In this document: positions 763-39,756 of the stretch, in pieces
Layout of the letters: each line of letters begins with the position of its first letter
Position numbering within the stretch: the first letter of the stretch is position 1
NCBI GenBank assembly: GCA_964385185.1
Contig: CAYLOA010000008.1
Coordinates: forward strand, 1 to 40,891
Length of the DNA: 40,891 nt
Reading direction: 5' to 3'
Source: an uncultured Methanosarcinales archaeon
GTDB lineage: Archaea > Nanobdellota > Nanobdellia > Woesearchaeales > CALCXY01
Translations under genes and position numbers: made by a program
Notes under the pieces: generated by a model
Database searches by the model: none
Told to the model about the DNA's origin: nothing
What the model saw: the letters and a program-made list of their open reading frames with translations, nothing else

Positions 763-816
763 CTAACAATGAATACAACCAGCACATAGTGCCTTAGCTC
801 TCGTTATTTTTGTCAT
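763..816 (-). CDS. Putative leaderless leader peptide MTKITRAKALCAGCIHC (17 aa, Cys-rich C-terminus)
   Basis: TTTAAATA at 846-839 with the ATG 30 nt downstream, the same spacing as leaderless housekeeping genes in this window. Confidence 0.55.
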   Translation of the reverse strand: MTKITRAKALCAGCIHC

Positions 817-870
817 AGATAGTGGAGACTATAGGTTATATTTAAAACTTTTGAAAAAGAAAAAAAGAAA

Positions 871-1122
871 TTATTTCCTAGCTTCTAACTTATTATACAC
901 CCAAGCAAAGACATACAATCCTAAGAATGCATCTACAAAACCATAGACTGCACCTATAAGACCACCAACTATGCTAATCTTATATCCATGATACACAGTT
1001 CCTAATAAAGTTAAAAACTCTAAACCATATCCTGTAGCCATAGAAAGTAATGTCAAAGCAAATAATCCTGCTCCCCAGACAATTCCACCAGCTAATCCTA
1101 AGTTTTTTGCATTTAATGTCAT
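871..1122 (-). CDS. Small two-TM membrane protein ('holin-like' family)
   Basis: Two hydrophobic Gly-rich helices (LGLAGGIVWG..., GGLIGAVYGFVDA). GAGGTGA SD lies before ATG 1122. Confidence 0.7.
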   Translation of the reverse strand: MTLNAKNLGLAGGIVWGAGLFALTLLSMATGYGLEFLTLLGTVYHGYKISIVGGLIGAVYGFVDAFLGLYVFAWVYNKLEARK

Positions 1123-1165
1123 TTTATCACCTCTTATCACCATTTAGCAAGAAATCTTTAAAAAA

Positions 1166-1893
1166 TTATTGTAAATCAAGCTCAACATATACAGGTAAAT
1201 GATCTGAATAATGAACGGGAAGCACTTTTGCTTCTTTCACATCTAATCCTTCAGAAATAAAAAAATGATCTATAGAACGTTCTGGTTTATAACTAGGAAA
1301 AGTTGGACCCAATTCCAAACGAGTAAGGCCAGAATGTGTCTCCAAATCTCCCATCCTATGATAGGTACCTTCTGTATTAAAATCACCCATCAAGACAACT
1401 GGAGTATCACAACCACCCACCATACAGATTAATTCCTCTAATTGAATCTCCCGATCATCTTCATCCAAACTCAAATGAACGAGCAAAGTAGTAATCCCAT
1501 TTTTATATTCTACTTTGAGACAAGAATTTTTGATTCCCTCACTAAATTCAAGAATTTCTGCTTTATTATAATCTTCTTTCGACAATAATGAATTGTAATG
1601 TCTTCTAAACATAGGAAAATTTCCTACGGGTCCCAAATATTTAGGACCATTAACAACACCCATCCCATCCGTTCACCCATATACTCAGCTTGATGAACTT
1701 TTGAACGAATGGTATCTCCATCAACTTCCAATAGCCCAATTATATCAGGATCATAACCTTCCAAAGCAGCCGTCATTTTTCTCAATGTAGACATTTTTGG
1801 ACGCAACCAACGTGCAGGATTCAAATGATACCACTTTTTAGAAAAATTAAGACCATATTGTATATTGAAGTTAACAATTTTTATTGATGACAT
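1166..1893 (-). pseudogene. Endonuclease/exonuclease/phosphatase (EEP) family protein split by a frameshift near 1660-1668
   Basis: The N-half (NFNIQYG, DIIGLLEVD) and C-half (VHL, MGDFN, IDHFF, SDHLP) lie in two overlapping frames. Confidence 0.8.
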
Positions 1894-2015
1894 ATGAAAA
1901 ACAAGAATCACTAACAATTAATAAATACATGCATAGCTTAATAAACCCTCAACAGTTCTTATAAACCACAACAAAGGAGTATTCCTTTGATTAATTTAGA
2001 ACGGAGAGAACAACA

Positions 2016-2159
2016 ATGAACGACGGAGAATTTAGAGAACAAGAAAAACACAAAGCAACATGCTCAGATTGTGGTGAAGAATGCGAAGTACCATTTAAAC
2101 CAACTGAAGGTAGACCAGTTTACTGCCGAGATTGTTTTAGAAAAAGCAAAAAGTTTTAG
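2016..2159 (+). CDS. CxxC-x17-CxxC zinc-ribbon protein (47 aa)
   Basis: Hand translation KATCSDCGEECEVPFKPTEGRPVYCRDCF; GGAG upstream. Not in the ORF track. Confidence 0.9.
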   Translation: MNDGEFREQEKHKATCSDCGEECEVPFKPTEGRPVYCRDCFRKSKKF

Positions 2160-3715: not shown

Positions 3716-4375
3716 TTAAGCTTCAGCTTTCGCTTCTTCTTTAACTAATTCAGGTTTAACTTCTTGAGCTGCTTCTGCATTCAACATACCTTTTTTGATA
3801 GGCTCAATCTTCATCTCTCGAATTTGACAATGTTGCATAGGTACTATTTTACCCAACACATCTCGTAACTCATACTGTAACTTACCAGCAACAAGTTCTT
3901 GTACTAAAGTATTGTAATCGTTATTCTTTAAAAATCGAGTTAAGAAATCTTCAGTCTTCTTTCGTAGCTGAGTTCCCATAGATTTTGTACTTGCAAATCG
4001 TGTTACTAAAAATGGTTTTATTCTAAGATTTTTACCATCCTTACTTTTGAATACATAAGAAAAGTCAATTCGGTTTTTACCCCGTCTCATCATTCTTTTA
4101 ATACTTGAAGCATTTAGTTTGTAACCAATACAGTGAGCTACACCTTTCTCTGCTTTAAGTTTATCAACTTTAAATTGAACTAGAATATTTTGCTTTTTAG
4201 GATCTCCTGTTAATTCATTCAAATTAACTCGAATACTTTTACCAAGTAACTGTTCCTTTTCTTCAACATGGGATTGACCAATAGTTGCATGCTTAAATGA
4301 TTCATCTGCAACAATATCAAACCAAAGTTTCTTCTTAACCTTAGCTGCCTTTCCTTTAGCTTTAACTTTTGCCAT
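3716..4375 (-). CDS. rps3ae: 30S ribosomal protein S3Ae (eS1)
   Basis: KKKxWFDI, LxELTGD, F+V and RRGKNRID are typical of eS1. Confidence 0.9.
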   Translation of the reverse strand: MAKVKAKGKAAKVKKKLWFDIVADESFKHATIGQSHVEEKEQLLGKSIRVNLNELTGDPKKQNILVQFKVDKLKAEKGVAHCIGYKLNASSIKRMMRRGKNRIDFSYVFKSKDGKNLRIKPFLVTRFASTKSMGTQLRKKTEDFLTRFLKNNDYNTLVQELVAGKLQYELRDVLGKIVPMQHCQIREMKIEPIKKGMLNAEAAQEVKPELVKEEAKAEA

Positions 4376-14882: not shown

Positions 14883-14936
14883 ATGAATAGTAAAAACATG
14901 ACACAATCATTGTTATTACTAGTTCTACTTCTATAG
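14883..14936 (+). CDS. Putative leaderless leader peptide MNSKNMTQSLLLLVLLL (17 aa, Leu-rich)
   Basis: ATTAAATA at 14853 with the ATG 30 nt downstream; 7 Leu + 1 Val in the last 8 codons. Confidence 0.6.
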   Translation: MNSKNMTQSLLLLVLLL

Positions 14937-21373: not shown

Positions 21374-21385
21374 TTCTAAGCAAAT

Positions 21386-25316: not shown

Positions 25317-25344
25317 TATAAATCAACTATTATTCTTATCCTTA

Positions 25345-25848: not shown

Positions 25849-25888
25849 CCATTAACTTTATAAATACCCCTTAGCTCCTTAAGAATAG

Positions 25889-27085
25889 ATGGCAAAACAA
25901 TCGATACAACCAGATATCTCTATTGGCTTAGTAGGTCACGTAGATCATGGTAAAACAACATTAACCCAACACTTATCAGGAAAGTGGACAGATACCCACT
26001 CAGAAGAGCTCAAAAGAGGTATTACCATCAGATTAGGGTATGCAAACTTCTCAATTTTTGAAAAAGATAAGAAATTAAACACTAAAGAAGGAACACTCAA
26101 AAGAACAGTCTCAATTATCGACGCTCCAGGTCACGAATCATTAATGGCTACCATGCTTTCAGGAGCTGCTATTATGGATGGAGCTTTATTATTAGTAGCA
26201 GCAAATGAAGTCTGCCCACAACCACAAACAGTTGAACATCTAAAAGCCCTAGAAATTGTAGGGATGAAAAATTTAATTGTAGTTCAGAATAAAATTGATT
26301 TAGTTGAAGAAAAACAAGCTCTAGCCAATTATAAAGAAATTAAAGCAGTCCTAAAATCAACTTCCTTCAAAGATGCTCCTATTATTCCCATTTCAGCGCA
26401 ACATGATGTGAATATGGATATGTTACTGCAAGCAATTGAAGATACCATCCCAACACCAAAAAGAGATACAAAAAAAGATCCTATGATGTTTGTTGCACGA
26501 TCCTTTGATATTAACAAACCTGGATCAAAGCTTTCAAAAATGGTAGGTGGGGTGTTAGGCGGAGCATTGAAAGAAGGAGTCTTCAAAGTAGGAGATGAAA
26601 TTGAGATAAAACCAGGGTATGCAATAGAATCTAAAAATCAACAAATTTGGAAAAGTATTACTACTAAAATAACAGGATTAATGTCTGGTTCAGATCAAAT
26701 TAAAGAAGTAAGTCCAGGAGGTTCAATCGCTGTTATGACAAGCCTTGATCCTTCTATCATTAAATCAGATACCTTAGCAGGTAATGTTGTAGGTCATAAG
26801 GATAAACTTCCTCCTGTGTGGGAAGAAGTCATCATGGACGTTACACTCTTAGATAGAGTTGTGGGAGCAAAAGATAAATTAGTTGTTGATCCTTTGAAGA
26901 CTAACGAACCAGTCATGCTGAATGTGAATGCAGCTACTACGGTGGGAATAATTACAAAGTTGAAGAAGAATGCTATTACTTTTGATCTTAAATTACCCAT
27001 TTGTGCTCAAGAAGGAGCTCGAGTTACACTTTCTAGAAGAATTGGTCAACGATGGCGATTAATTGGTTTTGGTATTATAAAGTAA
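25889..27085 (+). CDS. eif2g: Translation initiation factor aIF2 gamma subunit
   Basis: GHVDHGKT, EELKRGITIRLGYA, DAPGHE, QNKID and RWRLIG motifs. Confidence 0.97.
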   Translation: MAKQSIQPDISIGLVGHVDHGKTTLTQHLSGKWTDTHSEELKRGITIRLGYANFSIFEKDKKLNTKEGTLKRTVSIIDAPGHESLMATMLSGAAIMDGALLLVAANEVCPQPQTVEHLKALEIVGMKNLIVVQNKIDLVEEKQALANYKEIKAVLKSTSFKDAPIIPISAQHDVNMDMLLQAIEDTIPTPKRDTKKDPMMFVARSFDINKPGSKLSKMVGGVLGGALKEGVFKVGDEIEIKPGYAIESKNQQIWKSITTKITGLMSGSDQIKEVSPGGSIAVMTSLDPSIIKSDTLAGNVVGHKDKLPPVWEEVIMDVTLLDRVVGAKDKLVVDPLKTNEPVMLNVNAATTVGIITKLKKNAITFDLKLPICAQEGARVTLSRRIGQRWRLIGFGIIK

Positions 27086-27976
27086 TTATCTTTCTAACCA
27101 GTTTCTAACTTTAACTAAAGAGTCTATTGTTTGTTTTGGATTTGTTTTATCTTTATTGCTAACTTCTATACATATACTAATATCTGAATGTTCCTCCCGA
27201 ATATAATCAAAAAATTTTTCAAATTGCTCATCACCAATTCTTCCTTCTCCAGGAACTAATCCCTCAGTCCAAAGTGATTCATAAGGATCCCAAAATCCTC
27301 CTACATCACTTATATGTAAGAAATTAAGATGTTCTCCAAGAGCCCGTACTCCAGCTACTAAGTCAATTTCTTCAATACCACAAGCATAATGGCAAGTATC
27401 AAATGTTACCTTTAAATTTGTATTTCTAACAACATCTAAACAATCTTCCACTGATTCCACATAATCTCGCCAAACTGTATGAGGATCAGTATCAAAATCG
27501 CCAGCTGAAGGTGTAGGAAGATTTTCAATACCTATAGGAATATGAGTACTATTTTGACCACCTATTAAAGTCCGCCTAACAAGTTCTTTAGCTTCATCTA
27601 AATTTGTATAAAATAAACAAGGACTATTTCCATTATATCCTGCTGCAGCATGCAAGTGAATATATGCAGCGTTTAAAGTTTCTCCCAATTTGATATAAGT
27701 ATCTAATAAATTTTTACCTGCTTCTTTTGTTAAATCTGCTAATCCTTCAGTATACACAGCCAATCCTGAAAAACCATGAATAGCAATTTTAAAGGAGTCA
27801 ACATAAGGTTTCATGTTCTCCCGTACTGTTTCTAAACCTTCTTGAGTTGTAAAATCTTCAGCACTACCAATAACTTTCAATCCTCGTGAACCCTTGGGAA
27901 CATATTTCTCAAGAATTTTAGCCATAACTGCAATATCTGTAGGTCTTGATGCCCAAACCGGTAAATAGAACGTCAT
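27086..27976 (-). CDS. Xylose isomerase-like TIM barrel protein
   Basis: GIEN, FDTCH, LHISD, PGEG and CIEV motifs. Confidence 0.8.
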   Translation of the reverse strand: MTFYLPVWASRPTDIAVMAKILEKYVPKGSRGLKVIGSAEDFTTQEGLETVRENMKPYVDSFKIAIHGFSGLAVYTEGLADLTKEAGKNLLDTYIKLGETLNAAYIHLHAAAGYNGNSPCLFYTNLDEAKELVRRTLIGGQNSTHIPIGIENLPTPSAGDFDTDPHTVWRDYVESVEDCLDVVRNTNLKVTFDTCHYACGIEEIDLVAGVRALGEHLNFLHISDVGGFWDPYESLWTEGLVPGEGRIGDEQFEKFFDYIREEHSDISICIEVSNKDKTNPKQTIDSLVKVRNWLER

Positions 27977-28554
27977 CTAGATTCTCGCTTCATCCTTGCA
28001 AGTAATCTTTCTAAACTATCAATCTTTTGTAATAATTCTAACTTTTCATTATCCATAGATTGGATTTTCTTAATGTATTGAGTTAATTCAAAGTCGGCTT
28101 CTTTAATACCGGAAGAAATGGTAGTAAACTTCTTCAATTCATCTTGAGTTTGTGCTAATTCTATTTTTACACTTGCTAAACTCTCCTTAAGTTCTCCCAT
28201 ATCGCCCATCTCTTTCTTCAAATCGTCAACATAGGATTTAATTTCATCTTTTAACACTTCGTCAAACTTCTCAGTTAATTTCTTCTGCATATCTCCTGAG
28301 AGTAATTTAAAATCATACAATGCTTTTTCGAAATCTTCTCTAACTGAGACTACTTTTTTAGCATTTTCTTCAAATCCAGTAAGAAATTCTTCTTCTTTTC
28401 CTTGTAAGTCTTTCTGCAGATTCATTGCAGTCCGTAACTTACCCACTTCAACGTTTAGATTTCTCACTTCGTTGATCGTTTCCAAAACTCTACCAGATAG
28501 TTGGTCCAGTTCTTCTTTTACTTTTTTATTCTCAAACATAGAATGAAGAAACAT
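27973..28554 (-). CDS. Coiled-coil hypothetical protein
   Basis: Heptad-rich; C-terminal EKLELLQKIDSLERL. Confidence 0.75.
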   Translation of the reverse strand: MFLHSMFENKKVKEELDQLSGRVLETINEVRNLNVEVGKLRTAMNLQKDLQGKEEEFLTGFEENAKKVVSVREDFEKALYDFKLLSGDMQKKLTEKFDEVLKDEIKSYVDDLKKEMGDMGELKESLASVKIELAQTQDELKKFTTISSGIKEADFELTQYIKKIQSMDNEKLELLQKIDSLERLLARMKRESR

Positions 28555-28603
28555 TAAACCCTTTAAAAATGTTTTTACTGTAGAATATACTGTTTAGAGA
28601 ATT

Positions 28604-29191
28604 CTATTGTCTATGTTCTACATCAGCAAAGATTTTATGCTTCTCTTTCCCACTAATTTCATCTAAGATTCGCTTAATTATAGCTCTTTTAGGATCGGGC
28701 ATCAATTTCACACGATTTTTTATGTCTTCAAAACTCTTAAAATCTCCTTCTTTCCGTTCTTCTATGATTTCCCACATGTGTTTTTTGCCTAATCCAGGCA
28801 ATAATTCTAGGGAATGCATTCTTGTAGTTAACGGCTGAGCATTATTAAAAAAGTCAACATACTTTGCTTCATCTTTAACAATAATATCTGCAATAACGTG
28901 CTCCATTTCTGCTTTAGCAGTTGTGGTTAGTTTTTCAATTTCTAACTTTCCAGAAATGTGATGAATTTTATCTCTTTTACCCTCTCCGATGTAAATTTCT
29001 TCTAAGGGTTGTAAAAAGACATCTTTTTTTGGAACTAACTCTAGTAAGACAAAATGTTCTTTTCCAATAGCTTGGGCTATAGCTGTCTTAATGTGTGAAG
29101 GTCTTTGATCAAACGCATAACCGTTTGGCAAAAAGTCCAGCACAATTGCAGTTTCCTCTTTAGTTGATTGTCTTTCCATGTTAATCCCCAA
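28604..29191 (-). CDS. DUF655 putative RNA-binding protein
   Basis: VLDFLPxG, AQAIG, FFNxA, RMHSLELLPGLGKK; canonical position after rpo4. Confidence 0.92.
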   Translation of the reverse strand: MGINMERQSTKEETAIVLDFLPNGYAFDQRPSHIKTAIAQAIGKEHFVLLELVPKKDVFLQPLEEIYIGEGKRDKIHHISGKLEIEKLTTTAKAEMEHVIADIIVKDEAKYVDFFNNAQPLTTRMHSLELLPGLGKKHMWEIIEERKEGDFKSFEDIKNRVKLMPDPKRAIIKRILDEISGKEKHKIFADVEHRQ

Positions 29192-29245
29192 TAAAATAAG
29201 TACCTCGTCTAGATATATAAATCTTACGTAAGAAAAGAGGTTTGA

Positions 29246-29578
29246 TTATCGTTTAACAACAACATCGACAATCTTTTTCAGATTTTCATTGGTGATGGTA
29301 ATCGTATATCCTTGCAGAATAGACTTAAGATCTTCAGGAGTTTCTGGGAGTAAGTCAACAATCTTGCAAATATGCTCTTCTTTTAATCGAGAGATATTCA
29401 ATTTGATTAACTTTTCCTTCAATCCGTCCAATTTTTTATCAGTAACAAATTCATCTAAGTATTCAACAGTTCTCTGAGATCGAAAATTAAGTTCATCATC
29501 GCCTTTGCTAATCTTAGCAAGTTCGCCTTTTAATTCAGACATGGTAATTGGATGTTCTTCTATAATTTCCGGTTTCAT
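29246..29578 (-). CDS. rpo4: RNA polymerase subunit Rpo4/F
   Basis: ELNFR...EYL and KIVDLLP motifs; rpl21e-rpo4-DUF655 synteny. Confidence 0.88.
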   Translation of the reverse strand: MKPEIIEEHPITMSELKGELAKISKGDDELNFRSQRTVEYLDEFVTDKKLDGLKEKLIKLNISRLKEEHICKIVDLLPETPEDLKSILQGYTITITNENLKKIVDVVVKR

Positions 29579-29913
29579 TGTTTCGCCTCAGCTGGTTTTG
29601 GAGCTTCCTTAGCCACATGTTCAGCTTGTTTTGTTAAATGAATGGGATGAATAACTAATTTCTTTACCTTCTTTTGATCATTGAATTCAACTTCGTAACT
29701 TCTTCCTTGTTTACCTGTAACAATAGCAGTCATACCGTGAAATCGTGCGTGGTATAATCCTTTCTGAACTGCAGTTTCTGCGTGTAGATATACTCGATCT
29801 CCTTCTTTAAAAGTTTGTAAATACTTGGTAATAGAAACTTTACCTCGACTTCTAAAGTGTTTTCTAAACTTATGTCTTGAATTACTCCTTGAAGTTCCAA
29901 CTCTAGTTGCCAT
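29575..29913 (-). CDS. rpl21e: 50S ribosomal protein L21e
   Basis: FKEGDRV, HARFHG-T and K-L-IHPIHL motifs. True start 29913 (TATA 30 nt upstream). Confidence 0.95.
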   Translation of the reverse strand: MATRVGTSRSNSRHKFRKHFRSRGKVSITKYLQTFKEGDRVYLHAETAVQKGLYHARFHGMTAIVTGKQGRSYEVEFNDQKKVKKLVIHPIHLTKQAEHVAKEAPKPAEAKQ

Positions 29914-29963
29914 AGTAATGAGAGAATTGAGGGTGTTTTTAAAGGTTTTCATTTGGAACGAAT

Positions 29964-30135
29964 GGGAAAAGGGCAATGGTTCGCACAGCGAACCGACTCT
30001 CGCAGTCTTACGACTGCGAGCCCTTAGAGTAAAACACAACCACAACTACTGTTCGCTCTCAATGGTGCGAAGCATTTTGAGATCTTGTGGAACTTGTTCC
30101 GCTAGATGTGTGAGCCGGTAGTAGTGGTGTCTTCG
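29964..30135. ncRNA. Candidate large structured RNA (two three-way-junction domains), strand uncertain
   Basis: Nested inverted repeats in a GC-richer island. G-U pairs favour +; a GTAA loop and a T-run favour -. Confidence 0.6.
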
Positions 30136-30136
30136 A

Positions 30137-30184
30137 CTATTTCATCACAGTGTGCACAATAAACCAATAAAATAAACAATACAT
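30137..30184 (-). CDS. Putative leaderless micro-ORF MYCLFYWFIVHTVMK (aromatic-rich)
   Basis: TTTATATA starting 30213 with the ATG 29 nt downstream; abuts the structured element. Confidence 0.4.
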   Translation of the reverse strand: MYCLFYWFIVHTVMK

Positions 30185-30274
30185 AATCCTTGTTTCAACC
30201 TATAGTATATAAAAGCAAAACGTTTATATATATCTTAGACCGACTATACTATTGAATTTAAGGAGGACTACAAA

Positions 30275-30694
30275 ATGGGTTTTTTTTCACAAATAAAAGA
30301 TAAACTTTCTGACGGAACTGACGAAGAAGGCGGAGAAGAAGGTTACGTAGAGTTAGATACTGAAACAGAAGAAATAAAATCAAAGATTGTAGTAAGACCT
30401 TTTGTCCTAACAGACTTTGAAGATACAAGAACTATTCTAGATGCTTTAAGAGAAGGATCAACAATTCTAATTATTAACATTAAACCATTAAAGGATAAGG
30501 ATATTGTTGAACTAAAAAGAGCAATCAACAAAATTAAAAAGACAACTGATGCCATCGAAGGCGAAGTTGCAGGTTTCTCTGAAGATTTCTTGATTGTTAC
30601 ACCTTCTTTTGCTGAGATTTATCGAAGCAAAGGAACAAGTGAGATTAAAGATGCTCCGCCAGAACAACCAGAATCTCAACGTCCTGAGATGTAA
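30275..30694 (+). CDS. sepF: Cell division protein SepF
   Basis: D-LREG-ILIINIKPL, ELKRAI and LIVTP motifs; GGAGG SD. Confidence 0.9.
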   Translation: MGFFSQIKDKLSDGTDEEGGEEGYVELDTETEEIKSKIVVRPFVLTDFEDTRTILDALREGSTILIINIKPLKDKDIVELKRAINKIKKTTDAIEGEVAGFSEDFLIVTPSFAEIYRSKGTSEIKDAPPEQPESQRPEM

Positions 30695-30749
30695 TTTCTT
30701 TTTTTGCAACACCAAAAACCTTTTAAACACATCCAATACTTCTTATTTC

Positions 30750-31265
30750 ATGGGGGAAGAAATAGAAAAGGCACCATGTCCTATTTGTAAAAAGAAGTCC
30801 TTAGAGTTACGAGAAGAAGAGACTGAAGTCCCTTATTTCGGTAAAATGTTTCTATTTAGTATGGCTTGTGAAGAATGTAAATACTATAAAGCTGATATGG
30901 AAGCTTTAGAAAAGCAAGAACCTTGTAAATGGACATTTGAAGTTGATGGTGAAGAAGATCTTAAGGTAAGAGTTATCAAAAGTGCAGAAGCAACGGTAAA
31001 AATACCTCATGTAGCTTCTATTACTCCTGGTCCTGCTTCAAATGGATACATAACAAACGTTGAAGGTATTATTAACAGAATCAAACATCAAATAGAGTCA
31101 GCAAGAGATTCTGAAGAAGATAATGCTGTGAAGAAGAAAGCTAAAAATATGTTAAAAAAACTCCAGAAAGTAGTTTGGGGTAAAGAAAAGTTAAAACTCA
31201 TCCTAGAAGATCCAAGTGGTAATTCTGCAATAGTCTCTGATAAAGCAGAGAAAAAGAAATTATAA
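30750..31265 (+). CDS. ZPR1 zinc-finger protein
   Basis: CPIC...VPYFG...CEEC, PGPASxGYITNVEG and EDPSGNS motifs. Start 30750 by TATA spacing. Confidence 0.93.
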   Translation: MGEEIEKAPCPICKKKSLELREEETEVPYFGKMFLFSMACEECKYYKADMEALEKQEPCKWTFEVDGEEDLKVRVIKSAEATVKIPHVASITPGPASNGYITNVEGIINRIKHQIESARDSEEDNAVKKKAKNMLKKLQKVVWGKEKLKLILEDPSGNSAIVSDKAEKKKL

Positions 31266-31270
31266 CTCTC

Positions 31271-32188
31271 ATGAAAATACTCATAACCGGTTCTAATGGA
31301 TATATTGGAAACTTCTTAACAAAACACTTCTCAGAAAAAGGTATACAAGTTATAGGAATAGATCTTGAATCACATGAACGTCAAAAAGACTATACTCATT
31401 TTATCTTTGAAAAAGGAGATGTAAGAGAAAAAGACACGATAGAATCTATTTTCCAAAAACATAGACCTAACGTTGTTATTCATCTAGCATATCTCATGAA
31501 ACCACAACGAGATAAACAGGTAGAAACTGATGTGGATGTAACAGGATCAAAGCATGTCATCTCTGCAGCTAAAAACGTTGAGCATTTCATCAATTATTCT
31601 TCTTCTAGTATCTATGGAGGTCATAAATCTAATCCCTTATTCATAACTGAAGAATATCCTCTACAACCAAGAGATTGGGTCTATGCACAGAATAAAAAAG
31701 CAGTTGAAGAAATGCTCTCAAATTCTAAAATACATCATATTAACATTAGATCGTGTACTGTTGTAGGTCCTTCCTATTTCAATGAAGGGGGAGTAGTATC
31801 AGCTATAGCTAAAGGAAAAATTGGAGTAAAATTAAATTTCAGAGATTCATTAGTTCAATTCATCCATGAAGATGATGTTATCAATATGATTGAATTAATT
31901 ATAGCTAAGAAAACGCAAGGAACCTATAACTTCGCTCCAGAATCCTATGCAGGAGTCTCAGAATTAAACCCAAATAAACTCTACATCCCATTTCCCACAT
32001 TTGTATTCAAGGGAATTATTTCATTATTATGGAATGCCAAAGCAATAAACGTTTCTCCCACATCTGTAAACTTAATTGCCCATGGCATTGTGGTATCTTC
32101 AAAGAAATTAGCCTTCGACTTAGACTATAAGTTTGATTATTCTACCAAAGAAGCATATCTAGATGCTAAAGATAGGAGAGGATTGTAA
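31271..32188 (+). CDS. NAD-dependent epimerase/dehydratase (extended SDR)
   Basis: TGSNGYIG, HLA, SSSSIYG and YxxxK motifs. Confidence 0.9.
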   Translation: MKILITGSNGYIGNFLTKHFSEKGIQVIGIDLESHERQKDYTHFIFEKGDVREKDTIESIFQKHRPNVVIHLAYLMKPQRDKQVETDVDVTGSKHVISAAKNVEHFINYSSSSIYGGHKSNPLFITEEYPLQPRDWVYAQNKKAVEEMLSNSKIHHINIRSCTVVGPSYFNEGGVVSAIAKGKIGVKLNFRDSLVQFIHEDDVINMIELIIAKKTQGTYNFAPESYAGVSELNPNKLYIPFPTFVFKGIISLLWNAKAINVSPTSVNLIAHGIVVSSKKLAFDLDYKFDYSTKEAYLDAKDRRGL

Positions 32189-32347
32189 GTTTCTAAAAAG
32201 CATTATTTAAAATCTTCAGTTCTAACAGCTCCTTGTAGAATATCATGTAAAGATTGTGATTCACTATCCGTTGAGTCATCCATAATTATCAAAGAATAAC
32301 TCATTTGTAGTACTATATATAGATTTAGGTTTTAAAATATACCGATA

Positions 32348-33127
32348 CTACGCATTACGTATGGCCTTCACAATCTCAACAGCTTGCTTAGCTTCTTTCA
32401 CGTCATGCACCCTAATAATATCTGCACCATTTAACATGGAGATAACAACTGCTCCTAATGTTCCTCCTAATCTCCCATCAACTTCAGCTCCCGTTAACTT
32501 TCCAATAAAAGATTTTCTTGAAGGACCAATAACTATTTTTCCTAATACCTTAAATTCTTCTAATCTCTTCAAAATAGTAAGATTATGTTCAACAGTTTTA
32601 CCAAAACCAATTCCAGGATCAAATAATATTTCTTTAACGCCAAAAGATTCAGCTTTTTCTTTAACTTTCTTAAAATCAGAAATGATATCAGTAACAACAT
32701 CTTCATAATGCGGTTTATCCTGCATCGTTTTAGGATCTCCTTGCATATGCATACACACAACAGGAACGTTATGCTTTGCAACCACTTTCATCATTTCCTC
32801 ATCTCGTAATCCAGACACATCATTAGCCCAAGTTGCCCCTGCAATAATTGCTTTATCAACAACTGTAGCCTTGTAAGAATCAATACTAATGGGAACTTTC
32901 ACTTTATCTTTAATTGCTTCAATTACAGGAATAACTCGTCTTAATTCTTCTTCTTCAGATACAGGTTCAGAACCAGGTTTAGTACTCTCTCCACCCACAT
33001 CGATAAAGTCAGCTCCGTCTTTTTCCATCTGGAGAGCATGTTCAACAGCTTTCGAAGTATCAAAAAACTTCCCCCCATCAGAAAAACTATCAGGAGTTAC
33101 ATTAAGAATACCCATTATTTTAGTCAT
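32348..33127 (-). CDS. folP: Dihydropteroate synthase
   Basis: MGILNVTPDSFSDGG, GGEST, DPGIGF, SRKSF and RVHDV motifs. Confidence 0.96.
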   Translation of the reverse strand: MTKIMGILNVTPDSFSDGGKFFDTSKAVEHALQMEKDGADFIDVGGESTKPGSEPVSEEEELRRVIPVIEAIKDKVKVPISIDSYKATVVDKAIIAGATWANDVSGLRDEEMMKVVAKHNVPVVCMHMQGDPKTMQDKPHYEDVVTDIISDFKKVKEKAESFGVKEILFDPGIGFGKTVEHNLTILKRLEEFKVLGKIVIGPSRKSFIGKLTGAEVDGRLGGTLGAVVISMLNGADIIRVHDVKEAKQAVEIVKAIRNA

Positions 33128-33218
33128 AGAAATAAGAATCAATTGTGATATAAAAACATTACCAACCAGCACCCACATCTCAAGATAGATTTATAAGCAA
33201 ACTAATATTTTCACCTAT

Positions 33219-33866
33219 ATGATAGATACTCCTGAAAACGATGCTAACCCTCAAGCTGTATTAGGTGATGTCATTGATAGATTACTAGGTAATGTCCAGG
33301 TCCGTGAACAAGTTAAAAAAAGACTCTTAGATTTGGAAGGGGTTGAAAAATACCTAGGTCCAATGATGGGTATTCCAGATCATAAAATTCAAATTGCAGA
33401 GTATCTTCAAAAAGAAGGGGACGATGAACACCTTAGCCACACCCAATATTTAGGGGCAGTAAAAGTTCATTTCAAAGTCGAAAGTGAATATCATTTTATT
33501 CGAAATGGAATTATCATTGCACTAGATAAACATAAAAAAAATCTACAGAAGACTGCTGATGGGATGAACATTAGTAGAACCACACTAAGTACAAGAATAA
33601 AAGATTATAAAATAGATCGTGAAAGTGATCAAATGGAACTCTCAACAGAAGAACAATTACAAAAATCAGTAGCTTATAGAAGTAATATTTCCTATCAACA
33701 GGGAATACAATTAGTGTGCGCAGACAAAAGACAAAGATCCAATATAATATCTGCATTTGCCTCCATTTTAGAACAACACAGTAATGATAAGACGGCAACA
33801 GCTAAAAGTATAGGAATTCACCGTACAACATTTAATTCTGCATTGCTAGCATATGAAATTTCATAA
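33219..33866 (+). CDS. Protein with two Fis-type HTH motifs
   Basis: AL...N...TA...ISRTTL and IL...DKTATAKSIGIHRTTF. Confidence 0.7.
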   Translation: MIDTPENDANPQAVLGDVIDRLLGNVQVREQVKKRLLDLEGVEKYLGPMMGIPDHKIQIAEYLQKEGDDEHLSHTQYLGAVKVHFKVESEYHFIRNGIIIALDKHKKNLQKTADGMNISRTTLSTRIKDYKIDRESDQMELSTEEQLQKSVAYRSNISYQQGIQLVCADKRQRSNIISAFASILEQHSNDKTATAKSIGIHRTTFNSALLAYEIS

Positions 33867-33932
33867 AAAATCTCTTTTCTACTGCAAAGCCCCATTAATC
33901 TATTCTACAGATGCAGTAAAATTTAAAAATGT

Positions 33933-34727
33933 ATGAAGATTCCCCCCATTATGAACGAACCTCACCAGCTCTATATTGGATTTGACAATTCTTTTTTCAC
34001 TGATAATAAACCTGTTCATGGCAATCTCACCAGAAAAGACTGTACTAGAAGGTATAGGGAATTAATAGAACAACATAGTCAAGATATAGACCAAGTTTTA
34101 CAAAATAAAGCTTCACCAGAAGATTTACCAGAAACTTTTTTTGTTGAGATAAATAAGCTATCCGAATATGAGCAAGGAGTAAGTACATCTTTTTTAGCAA
34201 AAATGTATGATATAGGAAAAGTCATGGATGAGTGGAAAATTGAAAATATTCCAGATCATCAAAGATATTTTTTTTGGGGGAAAACTCCTTTTCATTTAAC
34301 AAGGCTTATCAAACCATATACCTATGCAAGCCATGCGCCAGAAAATGCAAAATTTAATTTTAACAAACAGTTTGGTGAAGACTATCTTAATTGGGTAAAA
34401 CAACTTCCAGAAGAGGAAGAAAGAGGATATAATTTTTCAGAACTGGTAGGGGGAGAAGGTGGGGGAGTCGCAACCTATTGGTCAATTATCCCTTACGTAT
34501 ATGCAGATTTAAGACAAAGAGAACAAAGCAGAAATGAGGCTATGAATACAATCGTAAACTGGATATTGGATAGTGAAGATGACGGAATATTTAATCCTAA
34601 GTTCGCTTCATTTGGATTTGCAGACATATACAGGTTTGATATAGGATTAGGGTATGATGAAAGAATGCCATCACACTTACGATCAAGAATTCTCTCTAAG
34701 GTTGTCACACAAAGATTAGTCGAATAA
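33933..34727 (+). CDS. Hypothetical protein
   Basis: Long ORF with no recognised motif. Confidence 0.7.
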   Translation: MKIPPIMNEPHQLYIGFDNSFFTDNKPVHGNLTRKDCTRRYRELIEQHSQDIDQVLQNKASPEDLPETFFVEINKLSEYEQGVSTSFLAKMYDIGKVMDEWKIENIPDHQRYFFWGKTPFHLTRLIKPYTYASHAPENAKFNFNKQFGEDYLNWVKQLPEEEERGYNFSELVGGEGGGVATYWSIIPYVYADLRQREQSRNEAMNTIVNWILDSEDDGIFNPKFASFGFADIYRFDIGLGYDERMPSHLRSRILSKVVTQRLVE

Positions 34728-34732
34728 AAAAT

Positions 34733-35887
34733 CTACTGCAAAGCCTCTTTAAACTTCTCAGCCAAATCCTTCTTCTCCCAAGAGAATTCTTCTCGACCAA
34801 AATGGCCATAGGCTGCTGTCTGTCTAAAGATAGGTCTTTTCAAATCCAAAGTATCAATAATCCATCTTGGAGTTAAAGGACAATGTTTTTTTACGACTTC
34901 TGCAATACGTTCTTCTTCAACTTTATTAGTTCCAAACGTATTCACATTAATAGAAGTAGGTTGAGGTACACCAATCGCATAGCTTATCCCTAATTCACAT
35001 TTATCAGCTAATCCAGCTGCAACAACATTCTTTGCTACATATCGAGCTGCATACGCACCTGATCGATCCACTTTAGAAGGATCTTTTCCACTAAAAGCTC
35101 CTCCACCATGTCGTCCAATTCCACCGTAGGTATCTACAATAATTTTCCTACCAGTAAGACCAGCATCTGCCTCAGGTCCACCTGAAACAAATTTTCCAGT
35201 TGCATTTATGTGCAATTGAGTATTTTCATCCATCATCGTACCACAAACAGGTTTAATGACTTTCTCAGTAATATCTAATTTTAATTTATCTTCTGTAACA
35301 TCAGCTCGATGTTGTTGAGCAATAACAATTGCAGTAATCTTATGTGGTTTACCATCATGGTATTCAATACTCACTTGAGATTTACCATCAGGACCTAATC
35401 CTTCAATTTCATTACTTTTTCTCACTTCAGCTAACTTCTTAGTTAACTTATGAGCAAGCATAACAGGCATAGGCATTAACTCAGGAGTTTCATTAGTTGC
35501 AAAACCATACATCATTCCTTGATCTCCTGCACCTTGTTCTTTATGTTCACCTTCTCCTTCAGTAACTCCTTGAGAAATATCAGGTGATTGTTCTGAAATA
35601 CTTACAATAACTCCACAATCATCTGCATCAATTCCAAAATCAGGATCAGTATAACCAATTTCTTTTAATGTTTTTCTTACAATTTTTTGAATATCGGCAA
35701 AACCTTTTGTAGTAATCTCGCCCATAACCATAATTAATCCTCTTGTAGTAGCTGTTTCGCATGCTACTCGAGAATCTGGATCTTGTCGTAATAGTTCATC
35801 TAAGATAGCATCACTAACTTGATCACATACTTTATCTGGATGACCCTCTGTTACTGATTCTGATGTAAAAAACTCAATTTTTGTCAT
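34733..35887 (-). CDS. metK: S-adenosylmethionine synthetase (bacterial type)
   Basis: [19 protein letters not shown] and GGGAFSGKD motifs. Confidence 0.97.
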
Positions 35888-35921
35888 GTTATCACCTTTG
35901 TTTTTTAATTCAAATTATTCC

Positions 35922-36545
35922 TTATAAGTTTGTTGGTTTTCTAGTATATACACCTGTAGCTGTTGGATATATCTTAACTAATTTGTCAATTGCTCGATCC
36001 ACATGAAATTTATAGGTACTATTCTTTGCATTATACCTTTCTTGTTGACTCTCAATAGCTATATCTGCCACCATATCTATAGGATGTTGTTTTGTAAATC
36101 CCATTGTCTTAGGTCTAATTTCTACACCATGTTCTTTAACGAGAAAATTTGCAATTGCATGAAACTCAGTTAAAGGATCACTCCGAGCGATTCTTGCTTC
36201 TCTTGAATCTACCCAACTTGCTCCTACATGTCTTAATTGATCTAAAGCAGAATCAACAGATTTTGCATATAATCCTTTTTGATCATACAATTCTTGATGA
36301 TCATGAATTGCTTTTTGTGCAACCTGATCACAAATGTGTTGTTTTGTTGCCGTATCAAGTTTAGGTAGTATATCAATACCAAATTCATGAACAATATATT
36401 TTGCAGTTTCATGAAATTCCTCTAAAGGTTCATTTAATGTAATTCTTGCCTCACGATCAGCAACTAATCGTTGTCTCCGTTCAGTTGAATAACTTGTATC
36501 CTTTTTTGTAGTATATCCAGATTGTAAAACCATTAATATCACCAA
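35922..36545 (-). CDS. Hypothetical protein with an internal duplication of about 80 aa
   Basis: REARI...PL.EFH..A...TKQH..D.VA..AI...QE.Y..K...VD.A.D.L occurs twice. Confidence 0.75.
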   Translation of the reverse strand: MVILMVLQSGYTTKKDTSYSTERRQRLVADREARITLNEPLEEFHETAKYIVHEFGIDILPKLDTATKQHICDQVAQKAIHDHQELYDQKGLYAKSVDSALDQLRHVGASWVDSREARIARSDPLTEFHAIANFLVKEHGVEIRPKTMGFTKQHPIDMVADIAIESQQERYNAKNSTYKFHVDRAIDKLVKIYPTATGVYTRKPTNL

Positions 36546-36651
36546 CCTCTAGACTTAATACACCATTTAAATACCCTCTTGACTAAATTATTCGTATAGG
36601 AATATTGCTATACTCAGAACCTTTAAATAACAGATTAAAGATAACTCAATC

Positions 36652-38682
36652 ATGTGTGGAATACTAGGAATATATGGCCCAAAGGCAACAGAAGCTACTA
36701 TAAAAAAAGGGATTGATTGTCTAAAACCAAGAGGGAAAGATAATCAAGACTTCATTAAAGTAAAGAAAGGAATCATAGGACACACTCTACATTCTATAGT
36801 CCACTTTGTAAAACAACCCTTTGTAAATGAAGGAGTCTTTGTGGGAAACACAGAAATCTATAACTGGCAAGCATTAGCACAAAAACATAATCTCGAAGTA
36901 CAAAATGACTCAGATTTAATCTTCCAACTCCTAGAATCAGGTTTACCTATAAAATTAGTAACTAATCTCCTAGATGGTGTCTATGCATTTGCCTACCAAA
37001 GAGAGGATACTGTGTATTTAGCAAGAGATCTTATCGGAGTAAAACCACTCTGGTATTCTGAAAAGCCATTCGCATTTGCTTCAGAGAGAAAAGCCCTGGA
37101 AAAAATGGGCTTTTCAAGCAAAGAATTGAATCCAAGACAAATCTTAGAATATAATATCAAAACTAAAAAAATTAAACTCACTAAAAGAGCATTTTTTACC
37201 ACAACACCTGAACATACACAGTCAGATATCCAGAAAAAGACTCAAGAATTATTAACAAAAGCAGTCTGGAAACGATTACCTGAAAAGAAATTTGGTTTAT
37301 TATTTTCTGGTGGTGTAGACAGTTCAGTCTTAGCACAATTACTCAAAGCGTTTAAAGTTCCTTTCACATGTTATACAGTTGTTGTAGATCATCCCAGCTT
37401 TCAAGAGCCGTATGATTTAGAGGCAGCGACAACAACAGCTAAAGCATTAGGATTAGATCTTAAAGTGATTAAAATAACAGCAAAAGATATTGAAAAAATG
37501 CTCCCTATTGTTATTCCTCTTATTGAAGATAACAATGTCCAAAAAGTTTCGGTAGCTTTAACTTTTTTCAAAGCAATTGAACAGGCAGCAAAAGATGGCT
37601 GTAAAGTGATGTTTTCTGGATTAGGTGCTGAAGAACTCTTTGCAGGGTATAAACGTCATAAGAATTCTTTACAATTAAACAAAGAATGTCTATCTGGCTT
37701 TAGAAAACTCTACGAACGAGATTTGTATAGAGATGATGTAATAACGATGTATCACTCAGTAGAATTACGATTACCCTTCTTAGATAAAAAATTAATCAAG
37801 TATAGCCTAAAAATTCCTCCTGAGTATAAAATAAAAGGAGAAAAAGATAAATTAGTATTAAGAAAAATTGCTGAAGAGATGGGAATACCCAAAGAGACAG
37901 CCTATCGTAAAAAAAGAGCTGCACAGTATGGTTCTAATGTACAAAAAGCACTTAAGAAGTTAGCAACGAACTTTGAAAGTGTTTCCGCCTATGTAGATAC
38001 CTTTAGTCAAAGAAAAAATCCTAAGTTAGGAGCTTTGTTGTCAACAGGTAAAGACTCTGTCTTTGCTTTGTATAGTATGCAAATACAAAATTATCCTATT
38101 GAATGTGTGATTACCTTAAAGAGTAATAATCCTGATAGTTATATGTTTCATACTCCTACTATTGATTTAGCTAAACAACAAGCAAAATCAATGAAGATTC
38201 CTTTAATAGAACAAGAAACAAAAGGAGTTAAAGAGAAAGAATTGGCTGATCTTCGTAAGGCTTTACAGAAGGCTAAAGAGAAATATGGCATTGAAGGGGT
38301 TGTTACCGGTGCAATTCGTTCTAACTATCAAAGAGATAGAATAGAAAAGGTGTGTGATAGTTTATCTTTGAAAATCTTTGCTCCTTTATGGCACATAGAT
38401 CAAGAGATGTATATGAGAAATGTGCTAAATAAAGGCTTTAAGTTTATCATGACTAAAGTTGCAGCTGAAGGCTTAGATAAAAGCTGGCTTGGAAGAGAGA
38501 TTACAAATAAGGATATAGATAAGTTAGTTAAAATCCATAATAAGAATCAGATTAATATTGCTGGAGAAGGCGGAGAGTTCGAAACATTGATGGTGGATGG
38601 TCCTATATTTAGTGATAAGATTGATGTTAAAGTAAAAGATATTGAAGAAGAGGGATTAGCTGCTGAAGTAGTTCTTAAATAA
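36652..38682 (+). CDS. Asparagine synthase B-like amidotransferase fused to diphthine-ammonia ligase (Dph6)
   Basis: MCGI, SGGVDSS, GAEELFAGY and ELRLPFLD; C-terminal STGKDS, DSYMFH and GEGGEFET. Confidence 0.9.
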   Translation: MCGILGIYGPKATEATIKKGIDCLKPRGKDNQDFIKVKKGIIGHTLHSIVHFVKQPFVNEGVFVGNTEIYNWQALAQKHNLEVQNDSDLIFQLLESGLPIKLVTNLLDGVYAFAYQREDTVYLARDLIGVKPLWYSEKPFAFASERKALEKMGFSSKELNPRQILEYNIKTKKIKLTKRAFFTTTPEHTQSDIQKKTQELLTKAVWKRLPEKKFGLLFSGGVDSSVLAQLLKAFKVPFTCYTVVVDHPSFQEPYDLEAATTTAKALGLDLKVIKITAKDIEKMLPIVIPLIEDNNVQKVSVALTFFKAIEQAAKDGCKVMFSGLGAEELFAGYKRHKNSLQLNKECLSGFRKLYERDLYRDDVITMYHSVELRLPFLDKKLIKYSLKIPPEYKIKGEKDKLVLRKIAEEMGIPKETAYRKKRAAQYGSNVQKALKKLATNFESVSAYVDTFSQRKNPKLGALLSTGKDSVFALYSMQIQNYPIECVITLKSNNPDSYMFHTPTIDLAKQQAKSMKIPLIEQETKGVKEKELADLRKALQKAKEKYGIEGVVTGAIRSNYQRDRIEKVCDSLSLKIFAPLWHIDQEMYMRNVLNKGFKFIMTKVAAEGLDKSWLGREITNKDIDKLVKIHNKNQINIAGEGGEFETLMVDGPIFSDKIDVKVKDIEEEGLAAEVVLK

Positions 38683-38728
38683 ATTCCGGAACAACAAGAT
38701 TTATAACTATAAAAAATAAAAATACTAC

Positions 38729-39259
38729 ATGAATATTAATTATCCAATATTAATTATAACATTCTTACTATTATTAGTTGCCTGTTCAACTACAGAAAAT
38801 AAAAAAAATATTGAAATTACCTGTCAAGAAAAAAATGGACTGGAATTAGAATATACACAACTCACTGCAAATAAAGTAAGTGAATTTATGAATTTGATAA
38901 ACGAAGATTGTTCCGATTTTGATGAATTAGATAATAAACCTATGACTCATATGATTAAATCTTGTTTTGAGTATAAACGAGAAAAATGTACCAAAAATAA
39001 AATAGATTATTGTGATTATATTTACAAAAAAGCAGAAACTTTCTTTAATGCAGAGTTAAATGGTGCAAACTATAAATTCAACTTTCAAATTGACAATAAA
39101 ATAATATGGCAACATGTCAAAGGCCCGAATTGTGGTAATAATCAATATATGTCAATTTTAAAGAATGGTTTAGTGGCAGTTACATTAGATGGAGAACCTA
39201 AAATTGTGCAGGTTAATCTTTATACTTGTGAAGTACCATTAGAATGCACATCTAATTAA
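38729..39259 (+). CDS. Cys-rich putative lipoprotein
   Basis: Lipobox LVAC; many Cys residues. Confidence 0.7.
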   Translation: MNINYPILIITFLLLLVACSTTENKKNIEITCQEKNGLELEYTQLTANKVSEFMNLINEDCSDFDELDNKPMTHMIKSCFEYKREKCTKNKIDYCDYIYKKAETFFNAELNGANYKFNFQIDNKIIWQHVKGPNCGNNQYMSILKNGLVAVTLDGEPKIVQVNLYTCEVPLECTSN

Positions 39260-39338
39260 TCCTCTAATTTTGACTGCAAATGCATTTCTATTTTATAAAA
39301 AAATAAAAAAAGATTTAAAAAAACCCATTCAGGGATTT

Positions 39339-39599
39339 CTAACCATTTTCCCTAAGATATTTTGGGCATGTTTTTGCATAATCCATAGAGCAAATGGAAC
39401 CACACGTATACATTTCTCCGGCATGCCCTAATAATTCATCATCAACAGCACAATAATACCTAGAGGGATCTGGAACAGTCCAACTACTTGAACCCTTGGG
39501 AGGGTCAATTTGAATTAATGGACATACTGTCTTTTTTACCCTTCTTTCTAATGTTTTCTTCTCTTGTTCATCAATTTGGTGCATTTTTATCATCTCCAT
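39339..39599 (-). CDS. Small Cys-rich protein (start possibly 39584)
   Basis: Five Cys; GGAGATGA SD before ATG 39584. Confidence 0.65.
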   Translation of the reverse strand: MEMIKMHQIDEQEKKTLERRVKKTVCPLIQIDPPKGSSSWTVPDPSRYYCAVDDELLGHAGEMYTCGSICSMDYAKTCPKYLRENG

Positions 39600-39717
39600 G
39601 TTTAGAGTCCATATGACTTGTATAGCTTAAGCTAACTTAAGCTCGCTAAAAATTTTGTATAGAAATAACTAACACCAGAGTCCTTGAGAAACTTTGAAAA
39701 TAGTGATATCTAAGAAA

Positions 39718-39756
39718 TTAGTACTTACGCCACCGACAATCACTTTCGTTGTTCAT
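39718..39756 (-). CDS. Putative leaderless leader peptide MNNESDCRWRKY (12 aa)
   Basis: TTTATATA starting 39786 with the ATG 30 nt downstream. Confidence 0.5.
   Translation of the reverse strand: MNNESDCRWRKY

Follow-up and report, generated by a model that had tools for sequence, protein, structure and literature searches.

The stretch analysed here, called the window below, is contig C8 (CAYLOA010000008.1; 40,891 nucleotides, nt) of genome G000, a 1.30-Mb assembly of an uncultured archaeon in 85 contigs with about 35% G+C. The window carries four very short open reading frames (micro-ORFs), named m1 (763-816, minus strand), m2 (14883-14936, plus strand), m3 (30137-30184, minus strand) and m4 (39718-39756, minus strand). 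A first-pass annotation of this DNA had proposed that all four were leaderless amino-acid leader peptides in a DPANN archaeon. In the present study, two of them could be assigned to conserved families. Because they are conserved across many taxonomic families and placed before matching biosynthesis, tRNA-synthetase or tRNA genes, the comparative evidence supports m1 as a histidine leader and m4 as a tryptophan leader.

The sequence was re-read, and the coordinates and translations of the four micro-ORFs were as originally given. Positions 816-763 (minus) encode MTKITRAKALCAGCIHC, 14883-14936 (plus) MNSKNMTQSLLLLVLLL, 30184-30137 (minus) MYCLFYWFIVHTVMK and 39756-39718 (minus) MNNESDCRWRKY. The spacers, T-runs and Shine-Dalgarno (SD)-led downstream genes reported behind the micro-ORFs were also seen. 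The upstream profile of the 1319 called genes indicated that G000 relies heavily on leaderless mRNAs, with an A-rich transcription factor B recognition element at -34/-33 followed by a TATA element that spans -30 to -23. The proposed rule that the TATA box begins 29-30 nt before the ATG proved to be genome-wide: among 3299 candidate ATG starts, the first base of the octamer TTWAWAWA was located at -30 in 156 cases; 71 had it at -29 and 29 at -31, and every remaining offset from -35 to -22 accounted for 3-13. A TATA box at this distance was found before all four micro-ORFs, the match at m3 being weak. Promoters were scored with a position weight model trained on gene starts, for which the training median was 13.8. 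At the correct spacing, m1, m2 and m4 scored 14.7, 11.5 and 17.3, respectively, with the refined model, and m3 scored only 5.7 with the first model.

The m1 locus contains the following features.

839-846, minus strand: TATA box TTTAAATA of the histidine leader, its first base 30 nt before the ATG

763-816, minus strand: m1, the putative leaderless histidine-leader micro-ORF (MTKITRAKALCAGCIHC and stop codon), matched by the family model R2 at E=1.7e-16

782-792, minus strand: 4-bp hairpin inside m1 (GCAC-UAU-GUGC), conserved in the family

769-771, minus strand: His codon CAT, invariant in the family alignment and presumed to be the sensor, one codon before the stop

742-762, minus strand: T/C-rich tract directly after the m1 stop (T5, TTCTAG, T4, T5), a candidate pause or termination site

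299-574, minus strand: SD-led, low-complexity ORFan of 91 amino acids (aa) with a GPPIGMGGDVAPTAS repeat, behind m1, without a Pfam match

G001, the only genome of the same genus that was examined (77% complete), matched positions 769-846 at 78% nucleotide identity, and the neighbouring coding matches ranged from 66% to 77%. It has the identical promoter block TTTAAATATAACCTATAGT, with the ATG 31 nt after the TATA box, and its counterpart of m1 is a 20-codon ORF with the C-terminus SAGCIHPK. An exact 15-mer scan of GTDB genomes returned mostly chance bacterial matches, together with at least four archaeal loci with in-frame micro-ORFs; among the matches listed, these loci belonged to metagenome-assembled genomes labelled Nanoarchaeota, Woesearchaeota (two) and Methanosarcinales (L084).

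The family was then delimited with R2, a sequence-only covariance model of six members (alignment A3), at a cut-off of E<=0.01. The histidine-leader family was found in 46 of 151 genomes sampled from the same order, and these belonged to many families of the order. An in-frame ORF beginning with ATG was present in all 34 matches that contained the conserved block. The encoded peptides are 9-34 aa long and follow the pattern M-x(n)-[IF]-E-[AD]-K-[AG]-x3-[SC]-A-[GD]-[CRYS]-[IVL]-H. The His codon is separated from the stop by 0-4 codons in 28 of the 34, and by up to 19 among the ORFs listed. Many of these ORFs are leaderless, and in 8/34 a simple search detected an SD-like motif ahead of the ATG. 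The length differences between members are multiples of three. The His codon is CAT in 24 members and CAC in 10, which is near genome usage, and all four GCN codons are in use for the Ala of the E-A-K motif. On the level of sequence comparison, the in-frame indels and the synonymous variation at the His and Ala codons are coding signatures. It had been suggested that m1 was a poly-Cys leader on account of its CxxCxxC end; this was not borne out, because only one Cys is common in the family, the motif being A-G-C-I-H with His as the invariant residue.

The genes behind the histidine leaders were scored for 25 loci with a co-directional downstream ORF of at least 150 aa. The downstream ORF was HisG at 12 of these loci, with two of the proteins fused to an aminotransferase, and in G073 HisG precedes the scored HisH gene, which brings the total for HisG to 13. 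Proteins of the HisRS/HisZ type were found at four further loci and a histidine ammonia-lyase-like (hutH-like) protein at one, so that his-related genes account for 18/25. In addition, tRNA-His lies directly downstream at 7 of 29 loci from the model search (G056, G001, G092, G097, G032, G027 and G072), and also directly behind the leader in L061, L084 and L085. HisG was detected in 44 and the leader in 46 of the 151 genomes, with both in 20; in about 14 of these 20, the leader is located no more than 500 nt upstream of hisG on the same strand. In some genomes the leader is present in tandem, with tRNA-His behind one copy and hisG behind the other. When 10 tRNA-His genes of relatives were taken without bias, the AGCIH motif was not found upstream of them, and two of the 10 loci have divergent micro-ORFs (DCLHC and DYIHC).

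In G000 itself, m1 precedes the T-runs and then the 91-aa ORFan, which matched nothing in Pfam and had no homologue among 60 relatives. HisG was not detected in a six-frame hidden Markov model search of the G000 assembly, and hisS is SD-led and lies within an operon.

Further observations concern these loci. The GPPIGMGGDVAPTAS segment is duplicated within the 91-aa protein (299-574, minus strand). Tandem copies of the histidine leader occur within a single locus in L213 (G021), L203 (G006), L217 (G098) and L206 (G042), and a second type of micro-ORF, [SA]DC[IL]HC..., lies nearer to hisG in G120, G027, G102 and G101 (L250-L253). An antisense or guide-RNA reading of m1 was considered and rejected: allowing up to three mismatches, neither a complementary nor a paralogous site for the conserved 17-mer was present in the genome. 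Readings of the elements as C/D-box, H/ACA, T-loop, split-tRNA or K-turn RNAs were also discarded, since the defining boxes were absent on inspection by eye.

The m4 locus contains the following features.

39779-39786, minus strand: TATA box TTTATATA of the tryptophan leader, its first base 30 nt before the ATG

39718-39756, minus strand: m4, the putative leaderless tryptophan-leader micro-ORF (MNNESDCRWRKY and stop codon), a member of the R3 family

39730-39732, minus strand: Trp codon TGG, invariant in the family alignment and presumed to be the sensor

39647-39756, minus strand: conserved tryptophan leader RNA of about 110 nt (R3 match), defined by BLAST and alignments

39735-39744 paired with 39702-39710, minus strand: helix P1 of the tryptophan leader, from the alignment

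39648-39652, minus strand: U5 tract of the tryptophan leader

39339-39599, minus strand: SD-led gene of a small Cys-rich protein behind m4, with the likely start at 39584

When positions 39595-39795 were compared by BLAST with 150 genomes of the order, the matches began exactly at the ATG and continued through the spacer (E=9e-24 in G146). R3, a covariance model of the tryptophan leader (alignment A7), matched 21 of the 151 genomes, with a single copy in each, and, in a phylum-wide sample, one genome of another order in the same class. No R3 match was obtained in G001, which is 77% complete and whose contigs end at the m4 region. The ATG lies at the start of the model match in 20 of the 21 members, at the first base in 19 and 3 nt further in the other. 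The weakest match, in G094, differs, and the tallies of the TATA box, the T-run and the single-Trp ORF cover the other 20 members. Their peptides are 9-12 aa long and have the form M-x(1-4)-[SV]-[DG]-[CY]-x-W-x(1-3) with a single invariant Trp. A TATA-like match is located 28-32 nt upstream in 17 of the 20 ATG-bearing leaders. These results indicated that m4 belongs to a conserved leader family; in the CRWRKY ending that had been pointed out, the conserved residue is the single Trp.

Behind the ORF, the tryptophan leader has a TTCTTAG element directly after the stop and a second box, GGAYUCUGGYGUUAG, similar to GAUUGUCGGUGGCGU within the ORF itself, and around nt 100-110 there is an A-run/U-run. 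A run of at least four T is present at nt 85-135 in 14/20 leaders. The sequence TTCT within 30 nt past the stop is shared by the two families, occurring in 20 of 20 tryptophan members (3.8 expected) and in 23 of 34 histidine members (6.4 expected). This enrichment provides a U-rich site between the leader ORF and the genes, which is a candidate termination site.

The targets of the tryptophan leaders were as follows. TrpE was identified in G108 and G077; TrpB in G031, G061 and G060 and TrpRS in G147 and G140, the latter each after a small ORF, scored above the NCBIfam cut-off. A TrpB-like protein was found in G022, and a TrpD-like protein, below the cut-off, in G094. In total, 9 of the 21 leaders precede trp-related genes. 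Four small downstream proteins, in G000, G146, G083 and G073, constitute one Cys-rich family. TrpE was not found in the G000 assembly. Thus, with hisG and trpE both not found in the assembly, the proposal that the leaders of G000 control small proteins instead of biosynthetic operons agreed with what lies behind m1 and m4.

The Cys-rich family (VCP...YYC...C..EYAKTCPxY, about 80-150 aa, no Pfam match) comprises 39339-39599 (minus strand) in the window, L268, L280 and L272, and it adjoins the tryptophan leader in four genomes of different families. Upstream of the m4 promoter, and adjoining it, a 36-nt stretch (39837-39872, minus strand) is 89% identical to the 5' part of a tRNA-Tyr gene with an intron on C21 (17040-17170), and recombination or integration may have left it there as a tRNA fragment.

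The two families share a grammar. The residues [D/G]-[C/Y]-x precede the sensor residue in 19 of 20 tryptophan peptides and in most histidine peptides, which at the RNA level corresponds to a shared GRU-UGU, and nine genomes carry both leaders. On another contig of G000, C25, a leaderless micro-ORF encoding MSTNCCC was observed at 4343-4366 (plus strand; L038:1614-1637) with its TATA box at -30. It ends 31 nt before an SD-led serine O-acetyltransferase gene. Leaderless ORFs of 7-9 codons that end in 2-4 Cys codons were found at 8 of 21 serine O-acetyltransferase loci in the order, and the MSTNCCC locus is therefore a candidate cysteine leader, which would represent a third family of the device. 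Judged by these comparisons, the idea of a recurrent device holds, with putative His, Trp and Cys members.

To place the micro-ORFs against chance, ATGs that open ORFs of fewer than 25 codons downstream of intergenic promoter-like sites were counted per offset. When all intergenic sites were included, offset 30 showed a small excess (19-21 versus about 9-11). At the 524 sites without a gene of at least 25 codons, 21 micro-ORFs were found at offset 30, compared with a mean of 5.3 at control offsets (sd 2.0, max 11). Comparison with the ARAGORN coordinates showed that five of these 21 coincide with tRNA gene 5' ends. In nine others, among them the cysteine leader, the micro-ORF runs up to or into the start of the next ORF. 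Seven have a spacer of at least 80 nt, which is about background, and three of these seven are inside the window. The initiator also prefers A (0.44-0.56 at offset 30 versus 0.36 elsewhere), which contributes to the excess. The enrichment over chance that had been expected was thus present in the raw count but not in the long-spacer cases: since the excess dissolves into tRNA starts, abutting ORFs and the A preference, statistics alone do not establish the class. It is conservation in relatives, as far as sequences can tell, that establishes two of the four loci, m1 and m4, whereas m2 and m3 are without conservation.

Two side observations were made in this survey. The tRNA genes at C11:15396, C15:6346, C28:7784, C4:54340, C17:8283 and others start 1-2 nt past the predicted transcription start, with a TATA box 30-31 nt upstream, so the predicted pre-tRNAs would be nearly without a 5' leader. 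This resembles the near absence of 5' leaders reported for Nanoarchaeum equitans. ARAGORN identified 19 tRNAs in G000 without its intron mode and 30 with it, and no tRNA in the window. At C5:15986, C48:2633, C5:50952 and C12:20486, four leaderless micro-ORFs of 4-10 codons were noted whose stop codon shares bases with the called start of the long ORF that follows (ATGA-type). A frameshifted gene start, a wrongly called start or a termination-reinitiation unit could account for them.

The other two micro-ORFs of the window, and the repeat beside m3, are the following.

14883-14936, plus strand: m2, poly-Leu micro-ORF with a promoter at -30, for which a leader function is unsupported

30137-30184, minus strand: m3, a micro-ORF that borders a repeat element and whose promoter match is weak

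29961-30025, minus strand: core of a structured repeat present in 25 copies, 48 nt upstream of leaderless rpl21e

The promoter of m2 is good, its tail is rich in Leu and Val, and a hairpin and T-runs lie behind it. A BLAST search with the m2 region and a protein search with the 82-aa downstream gene gave nothing convincing in G001 or in 150 genomes of the order; G001 has the NAD kinase but neither m2 nor the 82-aa gene. m3 (YCLFYWF) had also been proposed as a leader peptide, a proposal that finds no support, given its weak promoter, its position at a dispersed hairpin repeat and its lack of conservation. m3 is most likely a chance ORF at the edge of the repeat element. By conservation and gene context, the proposal of leaderless amino-acid leaders is supported for m1 and m4, but not for m3.

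The repeat consists of two hairpins, the first of 9 bp with a GNRA loop and the second of 7 bp with a UGU loop, separated by the sequence AGU. When its copies were aligned, 99% of cells were paired, and double changes occurred at 8 of 16 pairs. G000 contains 25 strong copies, which are intergenic and dispersed (for example, C30:2225-2289, C34:4185-4249 and C16:22291-22355). An additional bulged hairpin with an ACA loop precedes some copies, and in two the second hairpin carries insertions of about 50 nt. Nineteen of the 25 are co-oriented with the downstream gene, typically 43-100 nt upstream of it. Only one weak match was found in 60 relatives. In the window, the gene behind the repeat is leaderless rpl21e (29575-29913, minus strand), which has its own TATA box and is followed by rpoF, and SepF is divergent upstream. 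Contigs from four DNA runs over 20892-40891 were essentially identical at m3 and m4, and other-sample contigs break at 29997-30025, as expected for a repeat. The element resembles the bacterial repetitive extragenic palindromic and interspersed mosaic elements (REP/BIME) in its many dispersed intergenic copies, GC-rich hairpins, compensatory changes and module mosaic. It differs in being archaeal and in that 19/25 copies face in the direction of the downstream gene.

Taken together, we consider it probable, at roughly 0.65, that two related and hitherto undescribed families of leaderless leader micro-ORFs, each with one member in the window, are cis-acting elements of amino-acid regulons in an order of Woesearchaeota-type DPANN archaea. 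Several observations weigh against this reading. From the conservation of the ORFs and the SD-like motifs, we infer that the micro-ORFs are translated; that the amino acid is sensed through this translation is likewise what we infer. Classical attenuators use runs of cognate codons, whereas the His and Trp leaders have one invariant sensor codon, with two His occasionally, and runs (2-4) are seen only in the Cys family. The leader motif was absent from 15 of 15 typical long-form hisG loci, and 12 of the 21 tryptophan leaders precede genes without an obvious link to tryptophan, including BtpA, NIF3 (two), a PPDK_N-like protein, a flavin adenine dinucleotide oxidoreductase and small proteins. 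At some histidine loci, only 11 nt separate the micro-ORF stop from the next gene, too few to accommodate a terminator. In G094, the weakest match of the tryptophan family, ACG replaces the ATG and no ORF is present. Conserved alternative hairpins were not predicted in the histidine leader by RNAalifold. In the tryptophan leader, P1 pairs codons 5-7 with a GAYAUCACU box convincingly only in the closest members, where an alternative 2:3 pairing that is not conserved family-wide is also possible; single-sequence folds of the tryptophan leaders, with or without the first ~40 nt blocked, were inconsistent and gave no common switch. Finally, the 151 comparison genomes are related by kinship, so the counts drawn from them are not independent.

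A further constraint at the RNA level bears on what the conserved element is. In the histidine family, a perfect 4-bp stem was present in 31 of 31 homologues, compared with 3.06 expected from shuffles, and it was formed by 12 stem types. The hairpin, which lies just 5' of UGGUUGUAUUCAY, was the sole helix predicted by RNAalifold. In addition, several third codon positions are nearly frozen, with GGT in 29/29 (30% genome usage), GAG in 24/24 (27% genome usage), GCT in 28/29 and ATT in 26/26. The frozen third positions and the covarying hairpin indicate constraint on the RNA and leave room for an RNA-based mechanism, which also counts against the proposed reading. One could thus suppose that an RNA switch, that is, a riboswitch or a tRNA- or protein-binding leader, senses His or Trp without translation, and that the ORF is a by-product of a transcript that starts at AUG. 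The tryptophan leader, conserved over about 110 nt and so far past its 12-codon ORF, with a repeated box and P1, would suit such a switch. However, the ATG, the open frame and a stop soon after the sensor codon are kept in 34/34 histidine and 20/21 tryptophan members. Some of the histidine ORFs have SD-like motifs of their own (8/34), indels preserve the frame and the His codon varies synonymously, and the hairpin is retained even where it is shifted relative to the codons, with the frame still open. A T-box-like UGGN is not invariant, because GGT becomes GAT or GAC in 5/34 members, so that the UGG beside the hairpin becomes UGA. Nor was there any Rfam match, even at E<=10. On this evidence, a switch of this kind appears unlikely.

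The micro-ORFs might instead encode trans-acting small proteins, for example Cys/His metal-binding or regulatory peptides, that merely share operons with amino-acid genes. The conservation of the AGCIH and SDCRW motifs would be natural for such proteins, as would the copies that are SD-led operon genes with an 11-nt gap to the next gene, and the retention of both leaders in G000 though hisG and trpE were not found there. Against this, a single element stands before varied regulon genes (hisG, hisS, hisH and tRNA-His; trpE, trpB and trpS) in the manner of a cis-regulator, and tandem copies stand before successive genes. Moreover, the invariant residue fits the regulon each time, including poly-Cys before cysE, and the constraint on the RNA and the conserved tract after the stop would be left unexplained. 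We therefore regard trans-acting peptides as quite improbable. The notion that all four micro-ORFs are chance ATGs at or near the transcription starts of 5' untranslated regions or non-coding RNAs fits m3 with its weak promoter and repeat element, is possible for m2 and agrees with the A favoured at the start site and with the seven long-spacer cases at offset 30 against about five expected per offset, but it is excluded for m1 and m4 by their gene context and by an ORF and sensor codon conserved in dozens of genomes, and as an account of the whole it has very little to recommend it.

If m1 and m4 are indeed cis-acting leaders, the following mechanism can be proposed. The TATA box 30 nt upstream would cause the mRNA to start with the AUG of the leader. 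The peptide would be very short, with a single sensor codon (His or Trp) that follows [D/G]-[C/Y]-x and comes a few codons ahead of the stop, and within about 30 nt past the stop there would be a T/C-rich tract (TTCT, T-runs). When the cognate charged tRNA is scarce, the ribosome would dwell long on the sensor codon, and this dwell would decide whether transcription or translation proceeds into the downstream genes. Classical terminator and antiterminator hairpins were not found for the m1 and m4 families. In the route that we favour, the stalled ribosome would sit directly behind RNA polymerase at the T-rich tract and shield the nascent RNA from termination, which would require no such pair of hairpins. 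Shielding is favoured because conserved alternative hairpins are lacking in the histidine leader and because the sensor codon lies about 10-45 nt from the T-rich tract. Such a distance is roughly the reach of a ribosome touching RNA polymerase, as estimated from bacterial expressome structures, and TnaC-stalled ribosomes are known to block Rho. In these archaea, termination might be blocked by shielding the RNA from an archaeal termination factor. More speculatively, the fixed NNU codons that precede the sensor, each decoded through G:U wobble, may together with the conserved peptide sensitise a stall at a single codon. As a tentative generalisation, possible rather than probable, the leaders may constitute a regulon-wide form of ribosome-mediated attenuation that is independent of hairpins, in which leaderless micro-ORFs (His, Trp, Cys and possibly more) with a stall-prone context place a ribosome against a paused polymerase and thereby block termination.

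Leader-peptide attenuation is the textbook proof that translation steers transcription, and it is regarded as a bacterial speciality. If the present interpretation is true, it would be the first case in which such attenuation is shown in Archaea, a domain in which post-initiation regulation is barely documented. The control would extend past biosynthetic genes to a tRNA gene and, in auxotrophic members, to small uncharacterised proteins. Three leader families would make archaeal transcription-translation coupling testable with simple reporters, and the leaders would allow amino-acid regulons to be read where a genome has few recognisable regulators. Small uncharacterised proteins, such as the Cys-rich family behind the tryptophan leader, would moreover be marked as parts of an amino-acid starvation response in auxotrophic symbionts. 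The single-codon design, with its conserved peptide and RNA context, raises the question of how one codon can provide sufficient sensitivity. In the literature that our searches returned, leader peptides were exclusively bacterial, and no archaeal leader-peptide attenuator was mentioned. For archaeal trp genes, one source deals with protein regulators (PMC6737238), and a 2021 paper names promoter recruitment as the only known target of archaeal transcriptional regulation (PMC8448881).

Rfam returned no family on the whole window at the gathering score and nothing relevant at E<=10 on three loci, and the archaeal leaders have no sequence or Rfam similarity to the His_leader and Trp_leader families. 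They nevertheless resemble the hisL, trpL, leuL and pheL attenuators of Escherichia coli in having a very short co-directional ORF upstream of the genes of one amino-acid regulon, a cognate codon and a U-rich tract. In its size and its W-R ending, the tryptophan-leader peptide resembles TrpL. Unlike the E. coli attenuators, the archaeal leaders are leaderless, have a single sensor codon within a conserved peptide and RNA context, are without a conserved terminator/antiterminator set and also precede tRNA-His.

TnaC, SpeFL and the fungal arginine attenuator peptide are ligand-sensing ribosome arrest peptides. The archaeal peptides are similar to them in the conserved C-terminal motif near the stop and in that a stalled ribosome could shield the RNA, as for TnaC and Rho. 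However, biosynthetic genes need a logic that is the reverse of tna induction, and the distance from sensor to stop varies in the archaeal leaders. Moreover, the arrest peptides sense a free amino acid, whereas for the archaeal leaders only the sensing of charged tRNA is proposed.

A similar layout is known from mycobacteria, for which a preprint describes leaderless poly-Cys short ORFs as attenuators (bioRxiv 10.1101/834739). The mycobacterial and archaeal systems belong to different domains of life, and the histidine and tryptophan leaders differ in using one codon and a conserved motif; in m1, the cysteines are not the conserved feature. In both systems, the mRNA starts, or is predicted to start, at the AUG of the tiny ORF, whose codons report, or would report, an amino acid and which controls, or would control, the genes of the operon behind it. 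The C25 locus before serine O-acetyltransferase, with its MSTNCCC peptide, has the same leaderless poly-Cys layout as its mycobacterial counterparts.

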